Source: Promethearchaeota archaeon Loki_b32
GTDB lineage: Archaea > Asgardarchaeota > Lokiarchaeia > Sigyniarchaeales > SOKP01
NCBI GenBank assembly: GCA_005223125.1
Contig: NJBH01000054.1
Span: forward strand, 1 to 17,383
Length of the DNA: 17,383 nt
Direction of reading: 5' to 3'
Positions 1 through 16,959 of this stretch are shown in pieces. The first letter of the stretch is position 1. Each line of letters opens with the position of its first letter. Both the position numbers and the translations under genes were made by a program. The notes beneath the pieces were generated by a model that was not told the origin of the DNA, searched no databases, and saw only the letters and a list, made by a program, of their open reading frames with translations.

Positions 1-235
1 CATAAATTATATTATGTTTTGGATCCCAAAATAATTGTAAATAATTATAAATATAACCTTCAAATATTGGAAATATCGATTCACGTGGATTCTCAAATAT
101 ATATTTATCTACCATTGCTAAGGCTTCAACAAAAGTAGCATCATCTTTTACTTGAACAGTATATTCTTTCCCTTTTTGTAGACCCATCGACGGTATACTA
201 ATTTTAAATATAATTTTCTTAATTTTAATAATCAC
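1..235 (-). CDS. Hypothetical protein running off the left edge; possible MoaD/ThiS/SAMP-like beta-grasp (ubiquitin-like) fold
   Basis: Hand translation from GTG at 235 is open to the edge: VIIKIKKIIFKISIPSMGLQKGKEYTVQVKDDATFVEALAMVDKYIFENPRESIFPIFEGYIYNYLQLFWDPKHNIIY. The segment KEYTVQVKDDATFVEALAMV resembles the beta2-alpha1 region of MoaD/SAMP proteins. The C-terminus is not visible. Confidence 0.6.
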   Translation of the reverse strand, partial: MIIKIKKIIFKISIPSMGLQKGKEYTVQVKDDATFVEALAMVDKYIFENPRESIFPIFEGYIYNYLQLFWDPKHNIIY

Positions 236-271: not shown

Positions 272-562
272 CTAAATTAGACCTTTATTTTTAAGAAGTT
301 TTGGTAATTCTTTCTTGAGAATAAATGATGAACTAAATTTTTTCTCTCCATCAATTACAACACAATTATTCCGTAGGTTGAGCTTTCTAGCTTCTTCTGA
401 ATTAAGATTCTTAGTGTCATAATCAATGTGTTTTATATAGGGTGTAAGCTCAACAAAAACTCGGTTCATGAATTTGTCCCATTCACACGCACAAGCGTCT
501 AAGGGAACATAGATATCTACCTTTAATTTTTCTGAAGCTTTATTATCACTAATCTTTATCAC
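272..562 (-). CDS. Small thioredoxin-fold-like protein with CxC motif, downstream of acr3
   Basis: 96 aa. Strand-Cys motif-helix layout (KVDIYVPLDACACEWDKF) and a C-terminal CVVIDGEKKF segment like the PxxxIdG strand of glutaredoxin/ArsD-like folds. Co-oriented with acr3. Confidence 0.6.
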   Translation of the reverse strand: MIKISDNKASEKLKVDIYVPLDACACEWDKFMNRVFVELTPYIKHIDYDTKNLNSEEARKLNLRNNCVVIDGEKKFSSSFILKKELPKLLKNKGLI

Positions 563-576
563 ACCTAAGAATTATT

Positions 577-756
577 TTAATCTATATTATGAAGTCCTTT
601 ACATCTATCGGTACCACAATGAATACGTCTTGGTTCATAATCTGGACTATCCTTATTACAATGTGATTCCGAGTTATTACAGCTTGAGTGAGACATATTT
701 CCAATAGCTTCTCTTATTATCTTGGCAATTTGTTCATTCATTTCTTCTTCATTCAT
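577..756 (-). CDS. 59-aa Cys/His-rich small protein, not in ORF track
   Basis: Hand translation ATG(756) to TAA(577): MNEEEMNEQIAKIIREAIGNMSHSSCNNSESHCNKDSPDYEPRRIHCGTDRCKGLHNID. Has 4 Cys and 4 His, fills most of the gap between acr3 and the CxC gene on the same strand, and ends 14 nt before the next gene. Confidence 0.7.
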   Translation of the reverse strand: MNEEEMNEQIAKIIREAIGNMSHSSCNNSESHCNKDSPDYEPRRIHCGTDRCKGLHNID

Positions 757-833: not shown

Positions 834-1856
834 TTAGGATTTCCAAAATCCTTTTTTTTGTAGAAATCTGCCTAAATAAACCATCGAAAGCATCACAGGA
901 ACTTCCCAGAAAAGGCCCATCGTAGTTCCTAAAGCAGCAATTGAACCAATTCCATACATAGCAATAGCAGTAGCAATAGCAATTTCAAAATGGCTTGATG
1001 AACCAATTATTACTGTAATAACAGCTTCTTTGTACTTAAATTTAAATACTTTTGTAATGAGAATATTATATCCAACAACAATAAAAAATCCAACTAAGAG
1101 CGGAATTGATATTAATAGTAAGAGATCTGGATTATTTAGTATGACTTCACCACTCATAGAGAAAAGAACTACCAATGTCGTTAGTAGAGCAGCAATTGAT
1201 ATTTTACCAACTATTGGTCTATATGTATTATCAAACCAATCTTCACCCTTCGAAGATATCAATAATCTTTTGCTAATTATACCGAATAGAAGTGGAAGGC
1301 CTATAAAAATAAAAATCGAAACCAATAACAATATCCAATCAACTGGTATATTTTGAATACCTGTTAACAATGTTACCATCGGGGCATAACCAAATATTAT
1401 AGTTATCGTATTAAGGCTTGTGTTTACTACATTTTGCTCTTGATTTCCTTTTGCCATCCATCCCCACACTAAAACCATTGCTGTGCATGGACTTGAACTT
1501 AATAATATAATTGCAACTATTAATTGTTCATAACCCGGTACAAATATTCGCGCCATAAGTAATCCAACAAATGGAGCAATTAACCAATTAGAGATAAGTG
1601 TTAAAATTATAGGTTTAGGGTTTTTTCCTAATTTTTTTAATTCTGAAACTTGTAGATTTAACATTGCTGGATACATCATTAAGAATAAACAGATCCCAAT
1701 TGGTATAGAAATTTGACCAATGCTAAAAGCATCTATAGCTTGACCTATTCTAGGAATAATCTGTGAAAAGAGGATTCCAATAAAGATGCAAAGTGCAACC
1801 CACAATGGCAGAAACTTCTCGAAAAAGCTAATTGATCTACCTTCTTCCTCACTCAT
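834..1856 (-). CDS. acr3: Acr3-family arsenite efflux transporter
   Basis: 340-aa polytopic membrane protein with Acr3 motifs LFLMMYP, NWLIAPF, PCTAMVLVW (conserved Cys), SSHFEIAIA and EVPVML. Divergent from arsR. Confidence 0.95.
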   Translation of the reverse strand: MSEEEGRSISFFEKFLPLWVALCIFIGILFSQIIPRIGQAIDAFSIGQISIPIGICLFLMMYPAMLNLQVSELKKLGKNPKPIILTLISNWLIAPFVGLLMARIFVPGYEQLIVAIILLSSSPCTAMVLVWGWMAKGNQEQNVVNTSLNTITIIFGYAPMVTLLTGIQNIPVDWILLLVSIFIFIGLPLLFGIISKRLLISSKGEDWFDNTYRPIVGKISIAALLTTLVVLFSMSGEVILNNPDLLLLISIPLLVGFFIVVGYNILITKVFKFKYKEAVITVIIGSSSHFEIAIATAIAMYGIGSIAALGTTMGLFWEVPVMLSMVYLGRFLQKKGFWKS

Positions 1857-1977: not shown

Positions 1978-2328
1978 ATGACTGAGAATAACAAAGAAGA
2001 TATTAAAGCATTAATTGAATGTATTGGATTAGATGTAGATGTTTCTGACTACATTAAAGAATTAGAAAAAAACAGAGATGAGATATTATTAAGAAAAGAT
2101 TTTAAAGAAAATGTTATTTCTCATAAAGCTCTTGGTCATGAATCAAGATTTTTGATTTATAATTTGATTAAGAAAAAAGAAATGTGTATATGTGAACTCT
2201 CTACCATATCAGATTTAACTCAACCAACAATTTCTCACCACGTAAAGATACTAGAACAGGCGGGTTTGATAGTTGGAGTAAAGAGTGGAAAATTTATTCA
2301 TTACCAAATAAAAGTAGATGATTATTGA
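1978..2328 (+). CDS. arsR: ArsR/SmtB-family metalloregulatory repressor
   Basis: ALGHESRFLIYNLI, EMCICEL (ELCVCDL-type As(III) site) and TQPTISHHVKILEQAGLI helix-turn-helix. Adjacent to acr3. Confidence 0.93.
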   Translation: MTENNKEDIKALIECIGLDVDVSDYIKELEKNRDEILLRKDFKENVISHKALGHESRFLIYNLIKKKEMCICELSTISDLTQPTISHHVKILEQAGLIVGVKSGKFIHYQIKVDDY

Positions 2329-2469: not shown

Positions 2470-2748
2470 ATGCCATTACCTGTACCAGATACAGAGGAAA
2501 GTATGCAAGAATGCCGTAAACATATTAGATAACCTAATCTGTCGTCAGAATTCTGCGGACCTTGCCCCTCGTTTAAACCAAATCAACTCAATGAATTTGA
2601 GCCACATGCGTTATTTTGTTCAAGAGGACAATCAACAAAACCTAAAGAACAGATAGAAAATAAAGGTTGTAGTTGTTTTGGCTGCGGATTGTTCCCAAAA
2701 TATGAATTAGAGAAAGGATACTTTTGTATGCCATGGGAACAAAAATAA
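2470..2748 (+). CDS. Cys-rich DUF2769-like small protein, split by a 30-nt candidate BHB intron (exon 1 2470-2518, exon 2 2549-2748)
   Basis: Spliced translation (82 aa): MPLPVPDTEESMQECRKFCGPCPSFKPNQLNEFEPHALFCSRGQSTKPKEQIENKGCSCFGCGLFPKYELEKGYFCMPWEQK. It matches the archaeal DUF2769 pattern VPDT..C..CxxCPS..LFCxxGxS..GCxCxxC..YxL..YFC. SD-like GTGA lies 5 nt before the ATG and a poly-T follows the stop. Unspliced, the frame hits TAA at 2530-2532. Confidence 0.8.
2519..2548 (+). other. Candidate 30-nt bulge-helix-bulge (EndA-type) intron in a protein-coding gene
   Basis: Exon stem AGAAU(2508-12)/AUUCU(2550-54); central helix GCCG(2513-16)/CGUC(2543-46), 3 of 4 pairs; 3-nt bulges UAA(2517-19) and AGA(2547-49); intron stem ACA-U-AUUAG/CUAAU-C-UGU with loop AUAAC. 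Cutting after the second nucleotide of each bulge removes exactly 30 nt, including the stop. Confidence 0.75.
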
Positions 2749-2971: not shown

Positions 2972-4228
2972 TTGTATATGAAAGAATTAAGCGACATTCC
3001 GGAATTTTCAAAGTATTTTCAAGTAATTTCACCATCAGAAATTAATATTGATAAAGATAATATTTTTTATCGGGATAAATATAATGATATTATTAATTTT
3101 CTTAAGGTCATGTTAACAAATCATCACGATACTACTTTAAATGGATATATCGAACCAAAAGGAGCTGTTTTAATTAATGTAAATCCTGGAACGGATATAT
3201 TAGATTATTTAAAACTAATTACTAAAAATTATTACTTAGATCTAATTGAATTTAATGATAATGAAATTATTAAAGCTCCAAATAGATTTTTAAAAAGTTT
3301 TATATCTATTCTAGAAGATTTTGGAAGAGGATTAGAAAAAGAAGATGAAATTGAAATAAGCAAGAGGGAATCTGATAAAAAACATGAAAAAAAATTGTTA
3401 TTGATTAACCAACAATTGCGATTTAAGCATAAATTTGAAGAGATTAGTTTATTAGAGATATTTTTGAATGCTCGTGAAAATAAGAGTTTTAATTTTAAAT
3501 TTATTGACTCAAATTTAATTTTGGTTTGGTTAAATTATGATATTCAAGATATTAACAGTATTTCGGACAAACTATATAAAACATTTGATCTATTCATTAA
3601 AATCCCATTATTGAATAAAATCGAGCGAGAAACCGTATTAAAAGATTTTTTGGAAAAGAATACTAAAATTGTATTTGATATTAATGATATCGTAAATTAC
3701 ACAGAAAATTGGGAGGTAAAGGATATATTGCAACTGTTAAAGGTTGGAATATTCAAACATTTTTTAAACTCAGAATTAAATGACACAAGTAATGAAATTA
3801 CAGATGTTTTGATTGATTTAATTGTATCAGGTGAATTTATTCCTAATATTATTACTCCTAATTCAAATAATAAATCAAAGGTAGAATTAAAGGAAGAATA
3901 TAATCAAAATAAACAAGTTTTTTCACCTCAAGAACCTATTGATAATTACAATTTTAAAGATGTAAGCGGAATTATTCAAGGAATTCGCGAATCCCGTATT
4001 TCAGATTTCATGTTAAATCAATTATATGAAAATGCGGCTTCTAAGAATTATACTGAGCTTGTATTGATCATTGATAAATTGGCTAAAAAAGAACCTTTAG
4101 AAGAAAACGAAATGAAAATGATTGCAAAATATCCATTTATTTTAAATGATTCTCCAAATAGGGCTCAGATAAACTTAGAAAAGGCAAAGAAACGAGTGGA
4201 CCTTATAAAACAGGCATTTGGAAAATAA
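2972..4228 (+). CDS. Degenerate, probably inactive, AAA+ ATPase-like protein (likely start ATG 2978)
   Basis: EPKGAVLINVNPGTDILD aligns with the AAA Walker A region PKGILLxGPPGTGKT but lacks GKT. FDLFIKIPLLNKIERETVLK aligns with FDxxIxIPLPdxxxRxxIL, and YTENWEVKDI with the lid motif TxGxSGxDI. LLINQ occupies the Walker B position. Confidence 0.6.
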   Translation: MYMKELSDIPEFSKYFQVISPSEINIDKDNIFYRDKYNDIINFLKVMLTNHHDTTLNGYIEPKGAVLINVNPGTDILDYLKLITKNYYLDLIEFNDNEIIKAPNRFLKSFISILEDFGRGLEKEDEIEISKRESDKKHEKKLLLINQQLRFKHKFEEISLLEIFLNARENKSFNFKFIDSNLILVWLNYDIQDINSISDKLYKTFDLFIKIPLLNKIERETVLKDFLEKNTKIVFDINDIVNYTENWEVKDILQLLKVGIFKHFLNSELNDTSNEITDVLIDLIVSGEFIPNIITPNSNNKSKVELKEEYNQNKQVFSPQEPIDNYNFKDVSGIIQGIRESRISDFMLNQLYENAASKNYTELVLIIDKLAKKEPLEENEMKMIAKYPFILNDSPNRAQINLEKAKKRVDLIKQAFGK

Positions 4229-4250: not shown

Positions 4251-7200
4251 TTGGCAACTCGAACACGTTTAGATATGGAAAAGGATGGTTTTACTTCAAA
4301 GGAAAATACAAGAGTATTTATAAGGAAAGTTATTTTAGAAAACTTTCTATCTTTCCAAAAGGATGAAGTTGATTTCGGGAAATCAAAATTCGTTATTATA
4401 GTAGGGCCAAATTGGAGTGGGAAAACCTCAATATTTCAAGCAATTAAATTTGCTTTAGGCAGCAATGAAAGAGATGAGCGATATAAAAAATGGTCAGAAT
4501 TTATTCGGAATGGCCAAAATCATGCGATGGTCGAAGTCCATATTCAAACTGAAGAAGAAATAATCAAATTAAGAAGATATGTCATTAGAGGTCAATCTCC
4601 ATTCTTCAAAATTCAGAGAAAGGATGATGGAGACTTTAAAAAGATTTCAGTTCATGAAGTTCAAAAATTAATTTCTGAGTTTAATATTAACCCAGATAAT
4701 CAATTTGCTTTTGTTAGTCAAGGTAAAATTGACGCCATTAAAAATTTAAAACCAACACAATTATGTTCATTTCTCGAAGAGGGAATTGGCATAAAAACCT
4801 TGAGAGAAGAGATTTTACAGCAAAAAAATAATGTTCTCAATTTGAATAATGATCTTCATTCATTGAAGAGTCGAAAAACTACATTAAATGTAAGCCTAGA
4901 ACTATTAAATCCTAAATTAGAGCGCTTAAAAAAGAAAAATAAATTATTGGATATTAAAAAGAAATTCAATGACGAACTACTTTGGGCAAATAGGGATAAA
5001 CTAGAAAAGGAAATTATCACATTTGAAGAAATTGTTAAAAATGTCAAATTAGTCTTGGAAGGAATTAAAAAAAAAAAAGAGAGTTCCGATAAAGAAATAA
5101 ATGCGTTATCTAATAAAATTTCAAGTAAGGAACATAACATAAACAAGCTTTCAAAACAATTAGGCGAGTTGGGTTATAAAAAGCAAGATTTAATCGCTAA
5201 AATTCAAAATTGGCAAAAAGACAAAATCCTCGCTAAACAAGAATTAGATTCATTATCAAATAAGATTGATGAGATTCAAAAATTAGTCAATAATTTCGGA
5301 CAACAAAAATCCAGTCTGGAAAATGAAATAAAAGTAATAAAGACAGAAAGTAGAAATGCTGGTCTACAAATTGATAAATTAATAACTGAGCAAAACCAAC
5401 TAATAAAAAAAATAAAACAGAATAAAGTTCTTCTAGATAAATATGATCAAATAAATTCTGAGAAAAAAGAAAGATTAACAAATATACAAGAAAATGAAAA
5501 ATCAATAAAAGCATACAATAATGAAATTAATCAGTTATTTCAGAGTTTTAAAGATATTGAACATAAACTTGAGAAGAATAAATGGTTCTTAGAAAATCCT
5601 ACTAAAGATTTACTAATTCAGCTTGATAGAGAATTGAAAAGAACATCATTAAAAGTATATGAGATTGACTCAGAGATAAAACAATTAGAAATCACAATTT
5701 CAAAGAAATTCAAAAAATTAAAAGTATTACAAGCTTCACTTAGAGAACGTCGTGTAGTTCTTCCACCGAATATAGCAGTTCTTAGGGATGAAATAAGAAA
5801 AAGGGGTTTAAAAGTAAAGGGGCCAATTATCGATTATTTAAAATATAAGGATGAATTAAGTTATGCTATTGAATCCGTTCTGGGTGAAAAATTACTCTAT
5901 AGCTTTGTAGCTAAAGATTGGGATACTTTAAACTTATTAAAGAGACTAAAAGAAAAATATGGAGCATACTGTAATATTTATCTACCTAAAAATGTAGGTC
6001 TTAAACCTATGATTAAGATATCAGCTAATGGTATCCTTGGTTATTTGGCAGAATTGATCACTTTTATTGATGATGACATTGATATTAAAAAAGTAATTTA
6101 TTCAAAAGTTAAGAATTGTATTGTTGCTGTTGATTATCGTTCTGGAAGAGAACTTTATAGTACACATGATTTTAAAGGAAAATGTGTAACATTAAAGGGA
6201 GAACAGATAATATCTTATAAATATGTGTATGAAACACCTTTTATAAAAAGATTAAAAGGATTATTAAGTGCTGGTACACAAAAAGAACAATCTGATATCC
6301 TAGAGTCGGAAATCACATCATTAAATGAAAGAGTTTCAGAATTAAAAGTTGAGCAAGCAAAGTTGGATGCTATACAAAAAGATATATTTAAAAAGAAAGA
6401 GTCTTTTAATGATCTTCTCTATAACTTTAACCAAAAACAAAGAATCACCTCAAAAAAGAATCAGTTATATGATCAAATGCATGAACTAGAAAAGATTAAT
6501 GCCGTTATTAAAACTGAGATTAAAGAATTAAATCATCAAATAAAAGATTTAGAATCTAAAACAGATCCAGAATTTTTCAAGTGGAATGATAGAGTAAAAG
6601 AAATTCCTAATGAGTTAGCTAATCTGAATGAAGAAAAGAAGAAATGGGATATAAGATTAAGCGAGAATTTAGATATTCTGAAAGAGGTAAAAAGTGAATT
6701 AACTGAGCACTCATATGAAAAAAATGCCTTACAGAAGGAATTTGAGACAAAACGGGAAGCTTTTCAAAAAGCAGATAAGACTGCTTTTAATATATATCGT
6801 CAGTTAGAGAATGTTGAAGAAGAACTGGGTATAACAGAAAAAGAGATTTCAGATTTAAAAGGAGATATATCGTCATTACAGAACAAGAAAAGTGAATTAG
6901 AGAGGAAGTATATTCAAATTATATTAAGTTTTGAACAAGAAAATATCAAATTAAATTCTTATAATCAAGATCTGGAATCTAAAAAGAATGATTTAGATAG
7001 AATTAATTATGAAATAAGTCCCTTAGTCTTAAAAGAAGTAATAAGCATTCGTCCAATTGAGGATATTAAAACAGATATCTCAGAAGTAGATAAGAAGTTA
7101 ATAAAATACTTAGATGTTGATGATTCTATTCTAATTGAAAAAGACCAGATATTAGTATCTCTTAAGGAAATCTCAAAAAATCAAACAAACTTGGAAAAAG

Positions 7201-7718
7201 ATATAAAAGCTGCTATTAGAACGGAAAATAAAATGGAAAAAACATATTATGATAAATTTAGTGTTTTGCTTGAAAATCTCCAAAAGAAAGTTAATCAAAA
7301 ATTTGAAGATTCACAGATTAAATCCTTTTGTTCACTTAAATTAATCGGCAATTTTGAAGAATTAGGGGTTGAAATTAAGGCAGCTACCTCAAAAGAGCAA
7401 TTAAAATCTTTCACCGCTCTTAGTGGAGGTCAAGTTTCTTTAGTATCAATCTGTTTAATTTTATCTCTTCAAGAGATTAAGCCTTCTGCACTTTCTATGC
7501 TTGATGAACCTGGGATGTTCTTAGATGAAAAAAACTCAGAAGTAGTTTATCAATTGATTAAATCAACATTAGAGCAAAATCCAATTCAATTATTCATGTT
7601 TTTACCAAAATCCTCAAATTCTTTGTTTTTATTAGCAGAAAAGTTAATTGGAATTGCGAGAGTTGGAAAAAAAGAAATTTCTTCTGTATTTAAACCGAAA
7701 ATCGTGAAAAAGAAATAA
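4251..7718 (+). CDS. smc: SMC-family ATPase with SMC5/6-like motifs
   Basis: 1155 aa. LENFLSF, Walker A GPNWSGKTS, Q-loop FVSQG, coiled coil, hinge (VKGPIIDYL..YAIESVLG..CVTLKGE), coiled coil, signature LSGGQ, Walker B/D-loop MLDEPGMFLD, switch region QLFMFLPK. Confidence 0.92.
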   Translation: MATRTRLDMEKDGFTSKENTRVFIRKVILENFLSFQKDEVDFGKSKFVIIVGPNWSGKTSIFQAIKFALGSNERDERYKKWSEFIRNGQNHAMVEVHIQTEEEIIKLRRYVIRGQSPFFKIQRKDDGDFKKISVHEVQKLISEFNINPDNQFAFVSQGKIDAIKNLKPTQLCSFLEEGIGIKTLREEILQQKNNVLNLNNDLHSLKSRKTTLNVSLELLNPKLERLKKKNKLLDIKKKFNDELLWANRDKLEKEIITFEEIVKNVKLVLEGIKKKKESSDKEINALSNKISSKEHNINKLSKQLGELGYKKQDLIAKIQNWQKDKILAKQELDSLSNKIDEIQKLVNNFGQQKSSLENEIKVIKTESRNAGLQIDKLITEQNQLIKKIKQNKVLLDKYDQINSEKKERLTNIQENEKSIKAYNNEINQLFQSFKDIEHKLEKNKWFLENPTKDLLIQLDRELKRTSLKVYEIDSEIKQLEITISKKFKKLKVLQASLRERRVVLPPNIAVLRDEIRKRGLKVKGPIIDYLKYKDELSYAIESVLGEKLLYSFVAKDWDTLNLLKRLKEKYGAYCNIYLPKNVGLKPMIKISANGILGYLAELITFIDDDIDIKKVIYSKVKNCIVAVDYRSGRELYSTHDFKGKCVTLKGEQIISYKYVYETPFIKRLKGLLSAGTQKEQSDILESEITSLNERVSELKVEQAKLDAIQKDIFKKKESFNDLLYNFNQKQRITSKKNQLYDQMHELEKINAVIKTEIKELNHQIKDLESKTDPEFFKWNDRVKEIPNELANLNEEKKKWDIRLSENLDILKEVKSELTEHSYEKNALQKEFETKREAFQKADKTAFNIYRQLENVEEELGITEKEISDLKGDISSLQNKKSELERKYIQIILSFEQENIKLNSYNQDLESKKNDLDRINYEISPLVLKEVISIRPIEDIKTDISEVDKKLIKYLDVDDSILIEKDQILVSLKEISKNQTNLEKDIKAAIRTENKMEKTYYDKFSVLLENLQKKVNQKFEDSQIKSFCSLKLIGNFEELGVEIKAATSKEQLKSFTALSGGQVSLVSICLILSLQEIKPSALSMLDEPGMFLDEKNSEVVYQLIKSTLEQNPIQLFMFLPKSSNSLFLLAEKLIGIARVGKKEISSVFKPKIVKKK

Positions 7719-7731
7719 TTTTTGATATATA

Positions 7732-8379
7732 ATGGAATATAAAGATTTCTCTGAAGAAATAAATAATAAGATTGAAAGCATTAAAAATAGAGTTCTTGCA
7801 GGAGAAATCTCACTTTTAGATATTGATTTAGTACCTATTTTTGAGAATATAAAAGATTCCCTCACTATTTATAACATTAGTAAGTATTCGAGCACATATA
7901 TAAGTGCATTTCAGCTTCTCAGCCAAAAATTTGAAGAATTAAAAATATTCCTCAGTTATTTAGATAATCAAGATAAGTTTTTAAAATTCTTAAAGTCAAA
8001 TCCAAAAGATATTGAAATTTATCAACTATTTGAGGATTGTTGGAGAGACCCATTTATTATTGATGCCCTTTCTTTGAAATTTCTTGAATATTCTAAAGAT
8101 AGATTAGTAACTGAGAAACCAGAACCTTTAAAGATTGAACATCTTGATAAAATTAATTTAAAAGAGACCTTTTTATTAGAAATACCTGAAAAAAGATTTA
8201 CTGACAAAATGCTGGCTTTTTTTAACGTTATAAAGGATAAATTACCATGTTCATACGAAGAAATTTTTGAAAATGAACGTGATCAAATAAAAATTTTTGA
8301 AAATTTCGTATATTTATTGCATCTTTTACAGTTAAATAAGATAAAATATGAAAAAAATACTAATATGCTATACTTATAA
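7732..8379 (+). CDS. scpA: ScpA-like kleisin subunit
   Basis: Starts 13 nt after the SMC stop. N-terminal GEISLLDIDLVPI resembles the ScpA idPwDIdi motif, and C-terminal SYEEIF..IFENFVYLLHLLQLNKI resembles the kleisin winged-helix FlalLeL motif. Confidence 0.75.
   Translation: MEYKDFSEEINNKIESIKNRVLAGEISLLDIDLVPIFENIKDSLTIYNISKYSSTYISAFQLLSQKFEELKIFLSYLDNQDKFLKFLKSNPKDIEIYQLFEDCWRDPFIIDALSLKFLEYSKDRLVTEKPEPLKIEHLDKINLKETFLLEIPEKRFTDKMLAFFNVIKDKLPCSYEEIFENERDQIKIFENFVYLLHLLQLNKIKYEKNTNMLYL
8096..8257 (+). repeat. Copy 1 of a 162-bp direct repeat, internal to the kleisin gene
   Basis: Ungapped match to 10594-10755 with 16 mismatches by hand count (146/162, about 90%). Confidence 0.95.
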
Positions 8380-11517: not shown

Positions 11518-12768
11518 TTAAAAAACAATAATTCCTTTTTGATTTTCAATTATAGAAATTACTTCCTCCTTTATCAATTCTCCATTCCATATTTTCAATA
11601 GAGAATTATATAGCTCCCACGTTGACAATAAACCCCAATCATGAGATTCAGCAATTTTAATAACTTTTTGATCAAAAAAATTCCCTCTTTCTCCTAGTTT
11701 TTTATTTCTATATGCATTACAAATGAAGATTTGCTTAATCCTTTTTACATTTTCTTCTTCTTTATTTAATTCCTCAACACGCCATTTATACATCTGTTTT
11801 ATGTTTCTTTCATGAGCAATATCTTTTAACCCTTTGATTTCTGCTATTATTTTTATATTTTCTGTTTCACATAATAAATCTGCGCGATCTACTGATTGTG
11901 TTATGTTTTGGAACCCTAATAATGAGAAAATTGTAGAAATACTATTTTCCAAAGGTTTACCATATCCATATAACAAGATTTCAAATTTTTCTATTTTCTT
12001 TATTTTTTCTTCAATTGTATGTAATTCATCAATCAACCTTTTTTTTTTAAAAGGATCATAATCCTCTAACCATTTAGGTCTTTTAATTGTAAAATCCAAA
12101 CCTTTCTTGTATAACTCAAGCCAAAATTTATCGATATTCTCTAAACATGTTTTAATAAAATCTAGTTTATTTTTAGGATGTGGTAAAAAAATTAAAAAAT
12201 TATTTTCGATCCTAACAATTAATGATATAATATTCCCTTTTTTGTTTTTAGCTAATGTATAAGAATTATTTGGTAATTCTTCTGATTTAATAGCCCAATT
12301 CCAACAAAATTGTTGATTTTTCTCATTAAAAATTAACTTAGAGAGAGTGTAATCAGGATTTATTATAATGATTTTATTTCCTTTTTTATTAGTTGATTTA
12401 GGAATACCTTCCCATAAAGAAGATATGAGGTCAGGAGTTTTATGTTTTTTCTGATTAGCAAGTATAATTTCACAAAAAATCTTAGTAGTAAAAATAAATT
12501 TAATTTGTTTTAATTCTCCAGATTTTAATGTAAGTAATTTTTTTGTCTGATTATAATCAAAATCCCTGTAATCCTCGAACTTGATAAAAAAGATATCAAA
12601 ATCTTCAAGGTTGTGGGTTTTAAAATTATTCCAATTTGTGATTTCTACTCTTATTTCATCAGGAGTTTTTAATATATCTTCATTTTCATTATTATTTATT
12701 GGATCATCTATAACTAAACAATTCCATTTATTCATAATTATTTTAATCCGAAAAGTTTTTTTTATCAA
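11518..12768 (-). CDS. Hypothetical protein with C-terminal PD-(D/E)xK restriction-endonuclease-like domain (likely start ATG 12735)
   Basis: C-terminal LENSISTIFSLLGF..RADLL..IIAEIKG..NIKQ gives a D..ExK..Q Mrr-like catalytic pattern, preceded by a short coiled coil. Confidence 0.7.
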   Translation of the reverse strand: MIKKTFRIKIIMNKWNCLVIDDPINNNENEDILKTPDEIRVEITNWNNFKTHNLEDFDIFFIKFEDYRDFDYNQTKKLLTLKSGELKQIKFIFTTKIFCEIILANQKKHKTPDLISSLWEGIPKSTNKKGNKIIIINPDYTLSKLIFNEKNQQFCWNWAIKSEELPNNSYTLAKNKKGNIISLIVRIENNFLIFLPHPKNKLDFIKTCLENIDKFWLELYKKGLDFTIKRPKWLEDYDPFKKKRLIDELHTIEEKIKKIEKFEILLYGYGKPLENSISTIFSLLGFQNITQSVDRADLLCETENIKIIAEIKGLKDIAHERNIKQMYKWRVEELNKEEENVKRIKQIFICNAYRNKKLGERGNFFDQKVIKIAESHDWGLLSTWELYNSLLKIWNGELIKEEVISIIENQKGIIVF

Positions 12769-13177
12769 ATTTTCTTTCTAGTAATTTCATTATTAACCTT
12801 GAAAAATGATAGTTTATCCATTTAAAAATAAATTTTTAGCCAAACTTTTATTTTGTCTTGATTTTGGTCGAAAGAGACTCAAATCTAGCCTCCCTCCTAA
12901 TTTTCTATTTTACGCTTTATATCTTCATATTTTTTTTAATTCCTAATTATTTTTAGTGGGATTTGTGGTATAGTATCTATTTTCAAGAAGTAATTACCCT
13001 TACAGATTTAATTGAGAGATAAACTATTTATTATTATTTTAGGCTTTTTATTTATCCCAAGATGATATATTAAAAAAACTTTTTTAAAAGATCTCAATAA
13101 AACTTATTTAGGAGTCTTTCCACTATTTATTTGAAGAAGAAAATCGAGGAAATTATTATTAATAAGGGAATTAATAA

Positions 13178-14545
13178 ATGAAGTTACCACAAAATAAAAA
13201 AAATTTGACATATGGTAATGATACAATTGATATTAATGAAGCACTAACAAAATTTTCGAACCTTTTAATACTATTTCCATATCATCCTCAGAAATCTAAA
13301 ATTGAGAATATTGGGTGGTTAACTCCTAAAAAATTCTTAAGTAAAAGTGATATTCCAAAAAAACCTTTTTGCAATCTTATTGAAATATGCCATAGAAAAG
13401 GTTTTTCAGTGTTTAAAGATTGGCTTAGTTATATTGAAAACAAAAGTCTTAATAAAAGGGAAATCGTAGAAATTAGAAAAAAATTGGTAAATCATCTAAA
13501 CGAGCTTACAAAAAATATTGATTATAAAGAAGAAAGTGATAGATTAATTCTAAATAATCAATTTAAGGAGTTGAATATATGGATTAAAAAAATGTATGAT
13601 AAAATTAACTATCTAAAGAATAAGGGGGGTTGGAGTTCAGCATTCTTAAAGCAATTAAGAAGAAGAAAAGAAATTGGGGATGCTTACAAACAATATCGTG
13701 AGGTAAAGGCTAAAAAGAGGATAAAAAAGATTGAACAATATAATCAAAGAAGGAAAGAATTAATGAACGAAGATAAATTTGAATTTAATCTTTATAAACT
13801 ATTTCCAATGAGTTATACTGGATATAAGATAGAAAGAAAACTTCCCAAAAATCCTTCAGAAAAGGAAATTCTAAAATCTAAATTACTGAGATTAGAATAT
13901 AATTCACATGTTGCTAATTCTCTCTATAATGAGGAACTTCCTTTAGAATTAGAATTCACAAAAATTTTTCACTTTAAACATAACCTAAAAGAATTTAATA
14001 TCTTAACTCCTCAAGAATTTGATAATTCTATTAATGAAATATTACAATTAATGGGCCATAATTGGGTTTCCTGTATTAATGGGGAGTTAATGCTTATAGG
14101 ATATAGCACTGAGGAAAAAGAGGAAAAAGAAGTCTTTATATATTTAAAGGAACATCAAAAAGTAATTGAAAATCTTGAAAAAGCTAAACAGCATATAATG
14201 GAAGCCGACTGGAATAGTGTCCCTCTATATTGTTGTAAAGCTATTGAACACTTTTACAAAGACATATTAGGACAAAAAAATGTATTTGAGAAATATTCAA
14301 TATCTCAATTAACTCAAAAATTAATAAAAGATATTAACACAAATTCTCTCTTTAAAAATTCACCTATTGGTATTAACGACGGAATTAAATATCTATTACT
14401 ATCAGGGGTAAATTTAATTGGAACTCTTAGGAATAGGAAGGATTCAGCTCATGCTAATCTCCTTGATGTAGAAGATTGGGAAGCCAAATTAGGTTATAGT
14501 TATACTATTTTGTTATTGAAGTCATTAATGATAATTAAAATTTAA
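13178..14545 (+). CDS. Hypothetical protein with C-terminal Abi_C/HEPN-like helical domain
   Basis: C-terminal LEKAKQHI..DWNSVPLYCCKAIE..GTLRNRKDSAH..WEAKL resembles abortive-infection C-terminal (LRNxxxxAH) HEPN-like domains. Confidence 0.6.
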   Translation: MKLPQNKKNLTYGNDTIDINEALTKFSNLLILFPYHPQKSKIENIGWLTPKKFLSKSDIPKKPFCNLIEICHRKGFSVFKDWLSYIENKSLNKREIVEIRKKLVNHLNELTKNIDYKEESDRLILNNQFKELNIWIKKMYDKINYLKNKGGWSSAFLKQLRRRKEIGDAYKQYREVKAKKRIKKIEQYNQRRKELMNEDKFEFNLYKLFPMSYTGYKIERKLPKNPSEKEILKSKLLRLEYNSHVANSLYNEELPLELEFTKIFHFKHNLKEFNILTPQEFDNSINEILQLMGHNWVSCINGELMLIGYSTEEKEEKEVFIYLKEHQKVIENLEKAKQHIMEADWNSVPLYCCKAIEHFYKDILGQKNVFEKYSISQLTQKLIKDINTNSLFKNSPIGINDGIKYLLLSGVNLIGTLRNRKDSAHANLLDVEDWEAKLGYSYTILLLKSLMIIKI

Positions 14546-14968
14546 TTAAAAATATTGAATGTCTTTGAAATTTAAAAAAAAGTCTATCGTAAATCTATTT
14601 AAAAAGATTACTTATTACTAATCTTCTCTTTAATCAAAATTGCTCCAAATGGGGATATATATCGATTGACTTTTTCTAATTCTCTTTAAACCAAGATTAA
14701 GCCTCATGAAAAAGCTCTTTTGTTTTTTCCTCCGTTTTAAGAGACACAGGGTTCGAGTCTTTTTAAATTTTGTCCAAATTTCATTTGAAATTGGGTTGGA
14801 AAGGTAAATTCAGAGTCTGAGTTCAATGAAAATCCATTGAAAAATCAAGAATTTCTACATTTTTTTTCTAAATTTATGGAATTTCCATTTACTAATGGAG
14901 AATATTCTTGAGTATTATTTTTATATCTTTCTTTCCTATTTTTCCTCTAAATAGATCTTATGTTATAG

Positions 14969-15640
14969 TTGTTTCTAATGGAATTTGAAGAAAGACTTAC
15001 AGTTATCTTTTTAGAATTTATTAAACAGTCAATCGATTTTAAACATTTTATAGATGATATAACAAAACAAATTGAAATTCAGAGAAAGGATGGAATTTGG
15101 AGTGATCTTTTTAATTCAATTATTAAAAATCAAAACTCTCTTTTTTCAAAAATTGTTCATATATATAGTATTACTATATTTGAAACTTTTAGTCGAGAAT
15201 TTTTTGATGAATTAAATAAAGAAAAAAATTTGTCAAAAAAGAGATTTAAGACTACTCCCTCTAAAATATTGAAATTCTTCGAAAGTAATTTTCAAATAAA
15301 CCTTGAGAATGAATTTAAATTATGGGAGGATTTAAGAGAAAATATTTGTAGAAGGAATGTTATCGCTCATAATTTGGGTAAAATCGATCAACATTATATA
15401 GATTGTATGAATTATCCTAATTCTGTTCTAATAGATAAAATGATTGGGACAGATCTTGAACATAATTTACTCTATATAAAGAAGTCGAACGATACTGTTG
15501 GTAAATACATTGCTTTTACGTTCAAAAAAATTGCAGAGTTTTATAATTTTATTGATATCGAATCCACAGTAAGAAGTATAGCAGAAAATGATTATTTTGA
15601 TGACGTTAATCCAAACTTTCTTGATGATGTAGAAATTTAA
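14969..15640 (+). CDS. Stand-alone HEPN-domain protein, putative RNase (likely start ATG 14978)
   Basis: Canonical RxxxxH motif in RRNVIAHNLG, plus the upstream conserved acidic helix ITIFETF. Confidence 0.75.
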   Translation: MFLMEFEERLTVIFLEFIKQSIDFKHFIDDITKQIEIQRKDGIWSDLFNSIIKNQNSLFSKIVHIYSITIFETFSREFFDELNKEKNLSKKRFKTTPSKILKFFESNFQINLENEFKLWEDLRENICRRNVIAHNLGKIDQHYIDCMNYPNSVLIDKMIGTDLEHNLLYIKKSNDTVGKYIAFTFKKIAEFYNFIDIESTVRSIAENDYFDDVNPNFLDDVEI

Positions 15641-15705
15641 TTGTGTATTTAGAATGAGACGTGAAAGATTATGCTCTTGTTTCTTAGGTCACCATTTATC
15701 ATTTT

Positions 15706-16959
15706 TTAAATTGATATCTCTCCTTTAAATTCTAAGTGTATCTTAAATTCATCCTGAACAAATTCAATTAATTTTTTAAAAAATTTTGGTAGGATTTCTT
15801 TTATAGTATCTGGAGGATAATCTTTTTTTAACATAATTTCGTATTTATCATTTTTTTCAATATCCCAAGTTAAATGAGCATAATTGGGAATTAACTTGAA
15901 TCTTTTATAATTAAAATAAATTGGGAGATCATCGAAATCACTTCCGGGAGGTGCAGATTCCTTTATAGAAATACCGAAATATTTCTGCATTTCCATTGAA
16001 TCTCGAATAGTTCTGGAGAATAACATTGATGTTCCTGCTTTAGATTTATACAATCGAATAAAAAGTCTCGTTAATTCATCAAATAATTGTTGTATTTTTT
16101 CTTTTTCATTACTTAATCTAATTTCATCAGGATCAGATTCGGTTATAGTCATAATATTAAAATTTCCTTCTTTTAACCAATTGGTTCCATCCTTTTTTAT
16201 AAGGCATCCAGCTGAAGCTAATCTATTAGCTAAGTTTTTCCGGGCTTCAGAAGAGCCATCAAAACGAAGGAGGTGTCTGCCAGAGATATCGCTAAATTTC
16301 CTTACTTGACCAATCTCAATTAGGACAGTTCTATCGGGATCTCTTCCATAAGCCATCCCTGCTTCGAACAATACATTAGGTCGAGACTGACCTGTAAATT
16401 TTTTCTCAAAATCAGGATCCTCCTCTCTCTGAAATTCCAGTTTTAACCTGACTTCATCATCTGGAGTAAATATTACGAGAATTGCTTGAACATTATTATA
16501 AGCTTCAATTAAAATCTCATCTATATGAGGATTTGGTTTACCGGTCATTTTTATTGCTTCTTCCCATTCAATGGGATTCAAATCGATAGCTTTTAAAAAT
16601 TTAAACATTGCGTTTCTGTTATCCTTATCGCGCCCATGAACAACAAAAACAGACCTTTTGTTAATATCCTTGAAATTGTCGTTTGTATTCTGTTCTTGCT
16701 TAATTTCATTAATTGAAATATTTAATGATTCCTGAAGTATTCTATCTCCCAAAGGTTTTAATACATCCAAACATTCTTCTAAAATTTTACTGTGAATATG
16801 ATGTTTATAACCGTATGAATCCCATACCCCATATTCAGAGTTCTCTCTATAAATTTTTTTTCCTAATTCAATAATTAATGGTAAATTTTTAATATCTCTG
16901 ACAGCTTTATCATCTAATCCATAATTTACTAATTTTATTCCTCTATTTATCCTTTCCAT
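15706..16959 (-). CDS. Cap12/Pycsar-type TIR-like domain protein (putative NADase) with uncharacterised N- and C-terminal domains
   Basis: VFVVHGRD, IEWE, AILVIFTPDD, QSRPNVLFEAG (catalytic Glu) and FSDISG are hallmarks of the TIR-like nucleotide-binding family. Confidence 0.88.
   Translation of the reverse strand: MERINRGIKLVNYGLDDKAVRDIKNLPLIIELGKKIYRENSEYGVWDSYGYKHHIHSKILEECLDVLKPLGDRILQESLNISINEIKQEQNTNDNFKDINKRSVFVVHGRDKDNRNAMFKFLKAIDLNPIEWEEAIKMTGKPNPHIDEILIEAYNNVQAILVIFTPDDEVRLKLEFQREEDPDFEKKFTGQSRPNVLFEAGMAYGRDPDRTVLIEIGQVRKFSDISGRHLLRFDGSSEARKNLANRLASAGCLIKKDGTNWLKEGNFNIMTITESDPDEIRLSNEKEKIQQLFDELTRLFIRLYKSKAGTSMLFSRTIRDSMEMQKYFGISIKESAPPGSDFDDLPIYFNYKRFKLIPNYAHLTWDIEKNDKYEIMLKKDYPPDTIKEILPKFFKKLIEFVQDEFKIHLEFKGEISI

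Follow-up and report, generated by a model that had tools for sequence, protein, structure and literature searches.

The DUF2769 gene of the archaeon Loki_b32 contains a 30-nt insert with an in-frame stop codon, which raises the question of whether the insert is an intron removed by the tRNA splicing machinery or a defect of the gene. The analyzed stretch of DNA (hereafter, the window) comprises 17,383 nucleotides and is contig C28 of a 4.13-Mb assembly that is 95.5% complete. In our analysis, the insert is very probably an mRNA intron spliced by EndA and RtcB, and probably a near-neutral one. The features on which the argument relies are listed in Table 1.

Table 1. Coordinates of the DUF2769 gene, elements of the predicted BHB fold, neighboring genes and other introns or inserts of the same genome
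Feature	Coordinates	Strand	Remarks
DUF2769 gene	2470..2748	+	ATG 2470; stop TAA 2746-2748; one in-frame TAA, within the insert
Exon 1, DUF2769 gene	2470..2518	+	16 codons and base 1 of the Lys codon; has Cys15
BHB intron (predicted)	2519..2548	+	30 nt; in-frame TAA 2530-2532; hairpin 2520-2542
Exon 2, DUF2769 gene	2549..2748	+	7 of 8 Cys and stop codon; Pfam DUF2769, E=5.9e-12
Exon-exon stem, 5' strand AGAAU	2508..2512	+	helix 1; 95% of cells paired
Central 4-bp helix, exon strand GCCG	2513..2516	+	covaries with intron strand
5' bulge UA^A	2517..2519	+	BHB rule, predicted cut 2518/2519; boundary matches intron-less orthologs
Central helix, intron strand CGUC	2543..2546	+	one C-U mismatch
3' bulge AG^A	2547..2549	+	BHB rule, predicted cut 2548/2549
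Exon-exon stem, 3' strand AUUCU	2550..2554	+	5 bp with AGAAU
ORF without ATG	2-235	-	runs off contig end; no family match
96-aa CAC-motif protein	272-562	-	no family match
59-aa Cys/His protein	577-756	-	no family match
acr3	834-1856	-	ACR3 equivalog; sole family match in divergent run 2-1856
arsR-family regulator	1978..2328	+	Pfam HTH_5; conserved neighbor, context and not part of the intron
418-aa protein	2972-4228	+	no Pfam or NCBIfam match; preceded by the DUF2769 gene at 37 of 50 loci with full flanks
SMC-like gene	4251-7718		after the 418-aa protein gene
215-aa unknown gene	7732-8379		after the SMC-like gene
GlcD-like FAD-linked oxidase intron	C27:21006-21037 (L137:507-538)	+	32 nt, frameshifting, strict BHB; 10 of 29 orthologs
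Metal-dependent hydrolase intron	C64:72108-72137 (L138:409-438)	-	30 nt, stop-containing; 10 of 30 orthologs
EF-2 (P-loop) insert	C3:75804-75833		BHB/BHL-type; examined in this genome
rpl11 insert	C57:12438-12465		BHB/BHL-type; examined in this genome
gyrB insert	C56:37007-37059		BHB/BHL-type; examined in this genome
psmA insert	C4:22685-22713		BHB/BHL-type; examined in this genome
Histone gene insert	C27:38059-38088		BHB/BHL-type; examined in this genome

The interrupted gene and its orthologs

The identity of the gene is evident from its second exon, which matches the DUF2769 profile (PF10967) with 46.4 bits, above the Pfam gathering cut-off of 22.8, and is 82-94% identical to nine orthologs from the same genus. 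In an intact ortholog, the Pfam match starts at Cys15 and covers profile positions 1-57; all eight cysteines are invariant in 24 uninterrupted orthologs. In silico removal of the 30 nt yields an 82-aa DUF2769 protein with eight cysteines that reads E-C-R-K-F-C-G-P-C-P-S at the junction, the predicted joined exons being GAATGCCGTA followed by AATTCTGCGG. The product is ortholog-like, with 95% identity to the closest uninterrupted ortholog, and the original prediction that this excision restores both the frame and a compact cysteine motif (E-C-R-K-F-C) is thereby upheld. Cuts at 2520-2549 or 2521-2550 give an identical product, reflecting a 2-nt terminal redundancy, and cuts shifted one or two nucleotides leftward place Glu where the orthologs have Lys. 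The BHB rule, that is, a cut after the second bulge base on both sides, reproduces the uninterrupted ortholog sequence. Upstream of the gene, the SD-like motif amounts to GTGA; downstream, the "terminator" is a T-run without a hairpin. AlphaFold2 modeled the intact ortholog with an unusably low pLDDT of 49, and the literature searched contains no function for the DUF2769 protein.

We gathered 100 homologous loci, including the window; some of them are repeats of one organism, and 97 span the insertion site. The insert is precisely absent in 89 of these loci, whereas the other eight have a 30-31-nt insert at exactly the same site as in the window. The carriers are the window allele, L044, L052, L085, L105, and L128 (30 nt), and L057 and L120 (31 nt). 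In all of them the insertion point follows the first base of the Lys codon, and in all of them the frame is broken, by TAA or TAG at differing places or by the frameshift that accompanies a 31-nt insert. Intron-less loci mostly read C-R-K-F-C-G-P-C-P-S, as had been anticipated for them, and none of the orthologs encodes about ten ordinary residues at this site, the pattern that the original prediction had set against splicing. Because related inserts share one site in separate assemblies, the assembly error that it had also considered is ruled out. About 92% of the alleles lack the intron; therefore, the protein does not need it. Two Loki-type DUF2769 loci came from bins labelled Ignavibacteriaceae (L057, on a 2.3-kb contig) and Nanopelagicaceae (L046), and these contigs are probably mis-binned.

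The gene neighborhood is conserved: arsR adjoins the DUF2769 gene in 45 of the 50 loci with full flanks, and acr3 is found in 36 of them. Given these neighbors, it is probable that the DUF2769 protein binds metal(loid)s through its thiols. No arsC was seen within the window. Farther along the window, positions 11518-16959 may be a defence island, with two unmatched ORFs, a weak match to HEPN (MAE_28990-like) at 14969-15640, and, at 15706-16959, a TIR-domain protein of the CAP12/Pycsar kind.

Fold and covariation of the insert

The RNA pairing that had been proposed for this region agrees with the sequence letter for letter. The intron stem has eight of nine pairs around a 5-nt loop. At the E-C-R-K-F codons, the joined exons fold into a 5-bp stem closed by a 7-nt loop, just as an anticodon arm of a tRNA does, and the insert lies between loop bases 6 and 7, that is, at the equivalent of position 37/38. 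BHB geometry is present in all eight carrier alleles. The central helix of the window allele has three of its four pairs (a relaxed motif); a single mismatch in this helix is found in six of the eight carriers, the window allele included, and all four pairs are formed in L120 and L128.

By itself, the folding energy of the window allele is unremarkable (z = -0.99). The full BHB has -6.3 kcal/mol and lies 2.2 kcal/mol above the minimum-energy fold, in which the central helix is open. When the insert was shuffled against the fixed exon, an equally good helix and stem arose in approximately 1.5e-4 of the trials for the window allele, and in 5e-5 to 2e-3 for the other seven carriers. An Rfam search gave no credible match, and a group I or group II intron was rejected: the insert has just 30 nt, whereas a catalytic core of some hundred nucleotides would be expected.

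Covariation was analyzed in an alignment of the eight carriers with 18 pairs, with the kinship among the sequences left in. In total, 88.9% of the alignment cells pair (95% in the exon helix and 89% in the intron helix). Compensatory pairing had been predicted for the intron-bearing alleles and was indeed observed: two-sided changes occur in eight of the 18 pairs (13 cells), a number reached in none of 500 shuffles, and controls with a slid register have zero to two such pairs. Six of the nine pairs of the intron stem show two-sided changes, and two pairs of the central helix covary between exon and intron. Thus, alleles with the Arg codon AGA (L120 and L128) have GUAG in the exon and CUAU in the intron, and alleles with the Arg codon CGT have GCCG or GUCG in the exon and CGUC, CGUU, CUGU, or CAGU in the intron. 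Since it ties the sequence of the insert to the BHB register, the exon-intron covariation is the strongest evidence.

Splicing machinery, other introns, and intron history

The Loki_b32 genome contains two EndA-domain genes, one at C18:184174-184782 and the other on C2 near position 78500, and one RtcB gene, all with open frames. One EndA subunit, the catalytic one, is closest to EndA of Aeropyrum pernix (E=2e-35) and keeps Tyr143, His151, and Lys182; a lysine in the N-terminal loop of the EndA subunit aligns with A. pernix K44. A loop with such a lysine is credited with broad, relaxed-motif cleavage and is found in the two-subunit EndA of Asgard archaea (PMC5829648), and the cbf5 intron, also with an unconventional motif, has been tied to the hetero-oligomeric EndA type (PMC2738675). 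The host EndA is of the two-subunit type with the broad-specificity loop.

The most probable scenario is that this Promethearchaeia (Lokiarchaeia) archaeon transcribes the DUF2769 gene of its arsR/acr3 locus into a pre-mRNA from which the 30 nt are removed as a BHB intron of the tRNA type. In the fold, the 3' end of the intron pairs with four exon bases, leaving two opposed 3-nt bulges, and the two-subunit host EndA, acting by its established chemistry, would cut after the second base of each bulge. RtcB would then join the exons, producing the C-x3-C-x2-C motif and the 82-aa protein; on unspliced RNA, translation would stop after 20 codons. The intron itself is probably a near-neutral passenger, kept removable through selection on its fold.

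The same genome appears to contain further introns of this kind. A reference-free BHB scan cannot count them, because real and decoy geometries were matched equally often (108 vs. 135, then 27 vs. 28 matches); the window intron is among its top matches. Seven top candidates were translated, and the two that were taken to ortholog comparison, in the FAD-linked oxidase and the metal-dependent hydrolase genes, were both confirmed. The oxidase intron is precisely absent in 19 of 29 orthologs, and eight of its carriers fall into one well-supported clade of ten. The downstream frames of the oxidase carriers are intact (451-452 aa) and have low dN/dS (0.05-0.17), which is left unexplained if these copies are taken for pseudogenes. 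The hydrolase intron directly follows the His of the IPMH motif and shows compensatory stem changes among carriers. The genome scan for further BHB-interrupted genes suggested in the original prediction thus yielded two ortholog-confirmed cases. In addition, inserts were verified in the genes for EF-2, rpl11, gyrB, psmA, and a histone, all five with central helices of four out of four pairs. Overall, such a complete helix is found in six of the seven other introns examined in this genome. The rpl11 and gyrB genes are broken by their inserts and have no second copy in the assembly. Judging from these broken single-copy genes and the two ortholog-confirmed introns, the organism seems unable to do without mRNA splicing, and splicing of the DUF2769 intron becomes more plausible a priori.

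On the gene tree, carriers of the DUF2769 intron are scattered among intron-less copies (seven rows and seven changes, at least four of them forced by well-supported branches), a patchiness that suggests that the intron was lost repeatedly, spread laterally, or both. All eight inserts can be aligned as a single family with 70% column identity, and near-identical inserts of the window type, with 25-28 of 30 positions shared, reside in gene copies that differ at dS 1.1-1.7. In three of four carriers, differences from the intron-less sister concentrate within 15 nt of the site (p 0.005-0.02). Two histories would fit these patterns: the intron may have been transferred along with short flanking stretches, or it may be old and have been lost precisely several times while selection acted on the exon half of the BHB, which would mimic mobility. 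Among 77 distinct alleles without the intron, 46 already have four or more pairs of the anticodon-arm-like stem, so that the codons offer a ready target for an intron. It is conceivable, if on balance doubtful, that Loki-type Asgard archaea routinely splice many mRNAs with the tRNA machinery and that ORF-less 30-nt introns move between alleles together with a few flanking codons and without a homing nuclease of their own.

A donor of the insert was sought in several ways. In transposed tRNA introns of the Thermoproteales type, copies of nearly the same sequence reside in tRNA genes or at other sites of one lineage. In an ungapped scan of the genome, the best other match to the insert has 21 of 30 positions, and two covariance models run over 54 and 39 genomes of the genus found the DUF2769 site alone and no donor. 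Weaker covariance matches, including G019:C109 (E=0.003), were rejected, as they are devoid of the central helix and join no ORFs. Neither this genome nor 38 relatives yielded a tRNA intron resembling the insert in sequence, among tRNAs that were incompletely recovered (15 by ARAGORN); the low-threshold output of ARAGORN was noise. At C48:118159-118320 (minus strand), ARAGORN called a tRNA (anticodon TTA, 78-nt intron) that is probably a mis-parsed multi-intron tRNA. Contig C68, with a higher GC content of 33.5%, adjacent tRNA-Ile and tRNA-Ala genes, and bacterial-looking genes, is a possible contaminant.

Alternative explanations and known introns

An unlikely explanation is that the BHB-type element is real but poorly spliced in a dispensable gene, its mismatched helix making the allele an effective null or a hypomorph. 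The mismatch in the central helix and the weak energy agree with poor splicing, and the gene is dispensable: it was found in only 18 of 54 genomes of the genus, and the intron-less alleles L049 and L055 carry nonsense changes. One carrier, L044 (1501-1779), sits on a long branch, has Pro replaced by Leu or Ser at three near-invariant sites, and may be decaying. However, the compensatory changes of the stem, like those that link exon to intron, presuppose that removal remains under selection. The insert is also better conserved among carriers (25-28 of 30) than the third codon positions (48-52 of 77). The window allele keeps all eight cysteines and differs from its intron-less sister L071 by 19 base changes and three residue changes, all of the latter at variable sites. 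When carriers are compared over the region after the stop, dN/dS is 0.03-0.13, with dS of 0.45-1.8; because carriers are scattered on the gene tree, these low values may partly reflect intron-free time. Regulation is quite unlikely as well. A switch, in which splicing gates a metal(loid)-binding protein in an arsenic-response locus, is compatible with the intron interpretation and adds a function to it. Linkage to arsR and acr3 speaks for such gating, and the marginal helix could render splicing condition-dependent, but most alleles at the same locus, including the closest sisters of the carriers, lack the intron, which makes a regulatory role unlikely, and similar introns reside in housekeeping genes of the same genome.

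Translational recoding instead of splicing, be it stop readthrough, insertion of Sec or Pyl, or ribosomal bypassing of the hairpin, is very improbable. Six of the eight inserts do have the in-frame length of 30 nt, and a hairpin follows the junction. On the other hand, the stops vary both in identity (TAA or TAG) and in place (insert codon five or ten), the two 31-nt inserts shift the frame, matching take-off and landing codons are not consistently present, and the covariation between exon and intron would be left unexplained. A chance insertion, a nonsense mutation, or an assembly artefact has hardly any probability. In an AT-rich genome where decoy and real BHB matches are about equally frequent, the motif alone is weak evidence; yet the same site and fold recur in eight loci from separate assemblies, shuffling gives p of about 1e-4, and the pairs covary. 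Of two RNA runs, neither of which contains the window allele, one gave nothing and the other a single contig without the insert. This contig was considered as evidence of splicing and rejected: in its upstream letters and its differences, it agrees with a distant clade, and since the DNA alleles of that clade are themselves intron-less, the contig is uninformative on splicing.

The preferred interpretation, a spliced mRNA intron, has few precedents. In the papers searched, confirmed splicing of archaeal mRNA is limited to a single coding sequence, cbf5, and a single 5' UTR (PMC7714728, PMC2738675), and Yokobori 2009 (PMC2738675) speaks of introns in genes beyond cbf5 as predictions only. No paper on mRNA introns of Asgard archaea was found in the literature searched, a search with subscription journals mostly outside its reach; a preprint on Asgard tRNA introns does not treat mRNAs (bioRxiv 10.64898/2026.10.13.758758). 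The closest analog is the cbf5 intron of Desulfurococcales and Sulfolobales (Watanabe 2002; Yoshinari 2006; Yokobori 2009, PMC2738675), likewise a short BHB intron in a coding sequence (16-44 nt there vs. 30-31 nt here). Both have an unconventional motif, a host with hetero-oligomeric EndA, a patchy pattern of gain and loss, and a position after the first codon base in a conserved motif. In contrast to cbf5, which encodes a tRNA-modifying enzyme, the host here is a non-essential DUF2769 gene in an arsenic locus of a different phylum (Asgard); its intron is one of at least several such introns in the genome and is polymorphic within one genus. Splicing of cbf5 was seen in cDNA, whereas the DUF2769 intron is known from DNA sequence alone.

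Other relatives in mechanism are archaeal tRNA introns at position 37/38 (hBHBh' motif; Marck and Grosjean 2003), which have the same 5-bp stem and 7-nt loop and a similar size, and the introns of intron-rich Asgard tRNAs, likewise gained repeatedly at BHB-competent sites (bioRxiv 10.64898/2026.10.13.758758); the difference is that the host RNA here is an mRNA. The HVO_1309 transcript of Haloferax volcanii also contains an EndA-processed mRNA intron, of 46 nt (Schwarz 2020, PMC7714728), but that intron resides in the 5' UTR and does not gate the frame, is cut by a homodimeric EndA, and was demonstrated by circRNA-seq and in vitro. Membership in the cbf5 intron family, which occupies the catalytic Asp codon of cbf5, was rejected, the host gene here being DUF2769. 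Nevertheless, the DUF2769 intron is predicted to work like the cbf5 intron, and each property of a BHB intron that a sequence can reveal was found in it.

In eukaryotes, a short frame-changing intron of HAC1/XBP1 is removed by a protein endonuclease, IRE1, after which a tRNA ligase (in animals, RtcB) rejoins the exons. EndA and IRE1 are unrelated; the latter cuts two stem-loops rather than a BHB and is regulated by stress. The two systems have only their logic and the ligation by RtcB, as found in animals, in common, and any relevance of the DUF2769 intron to the origin of eukaryotic non-spliceosomal mRNA splicing is speculative.

The locus provides a compact test system for the arrival and departure of introns, with eight natural carriers and close intron-less sisters, exon-intron covariation, a target that mimics an anticodon arm, and a substrate (window 2505-2556) that can be assayed directly, its length being about 52 nt. 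An intron of conserved structure in such an ordinary gene, together with the broken rpl11, gyrB, and EF-2 genes, implies regular mRNA splicing in the closest prokaryotic relatives of eukaryotes. If this is true, the annotations of Asgard genomes would contain false pseudogenes and truncated proteins.
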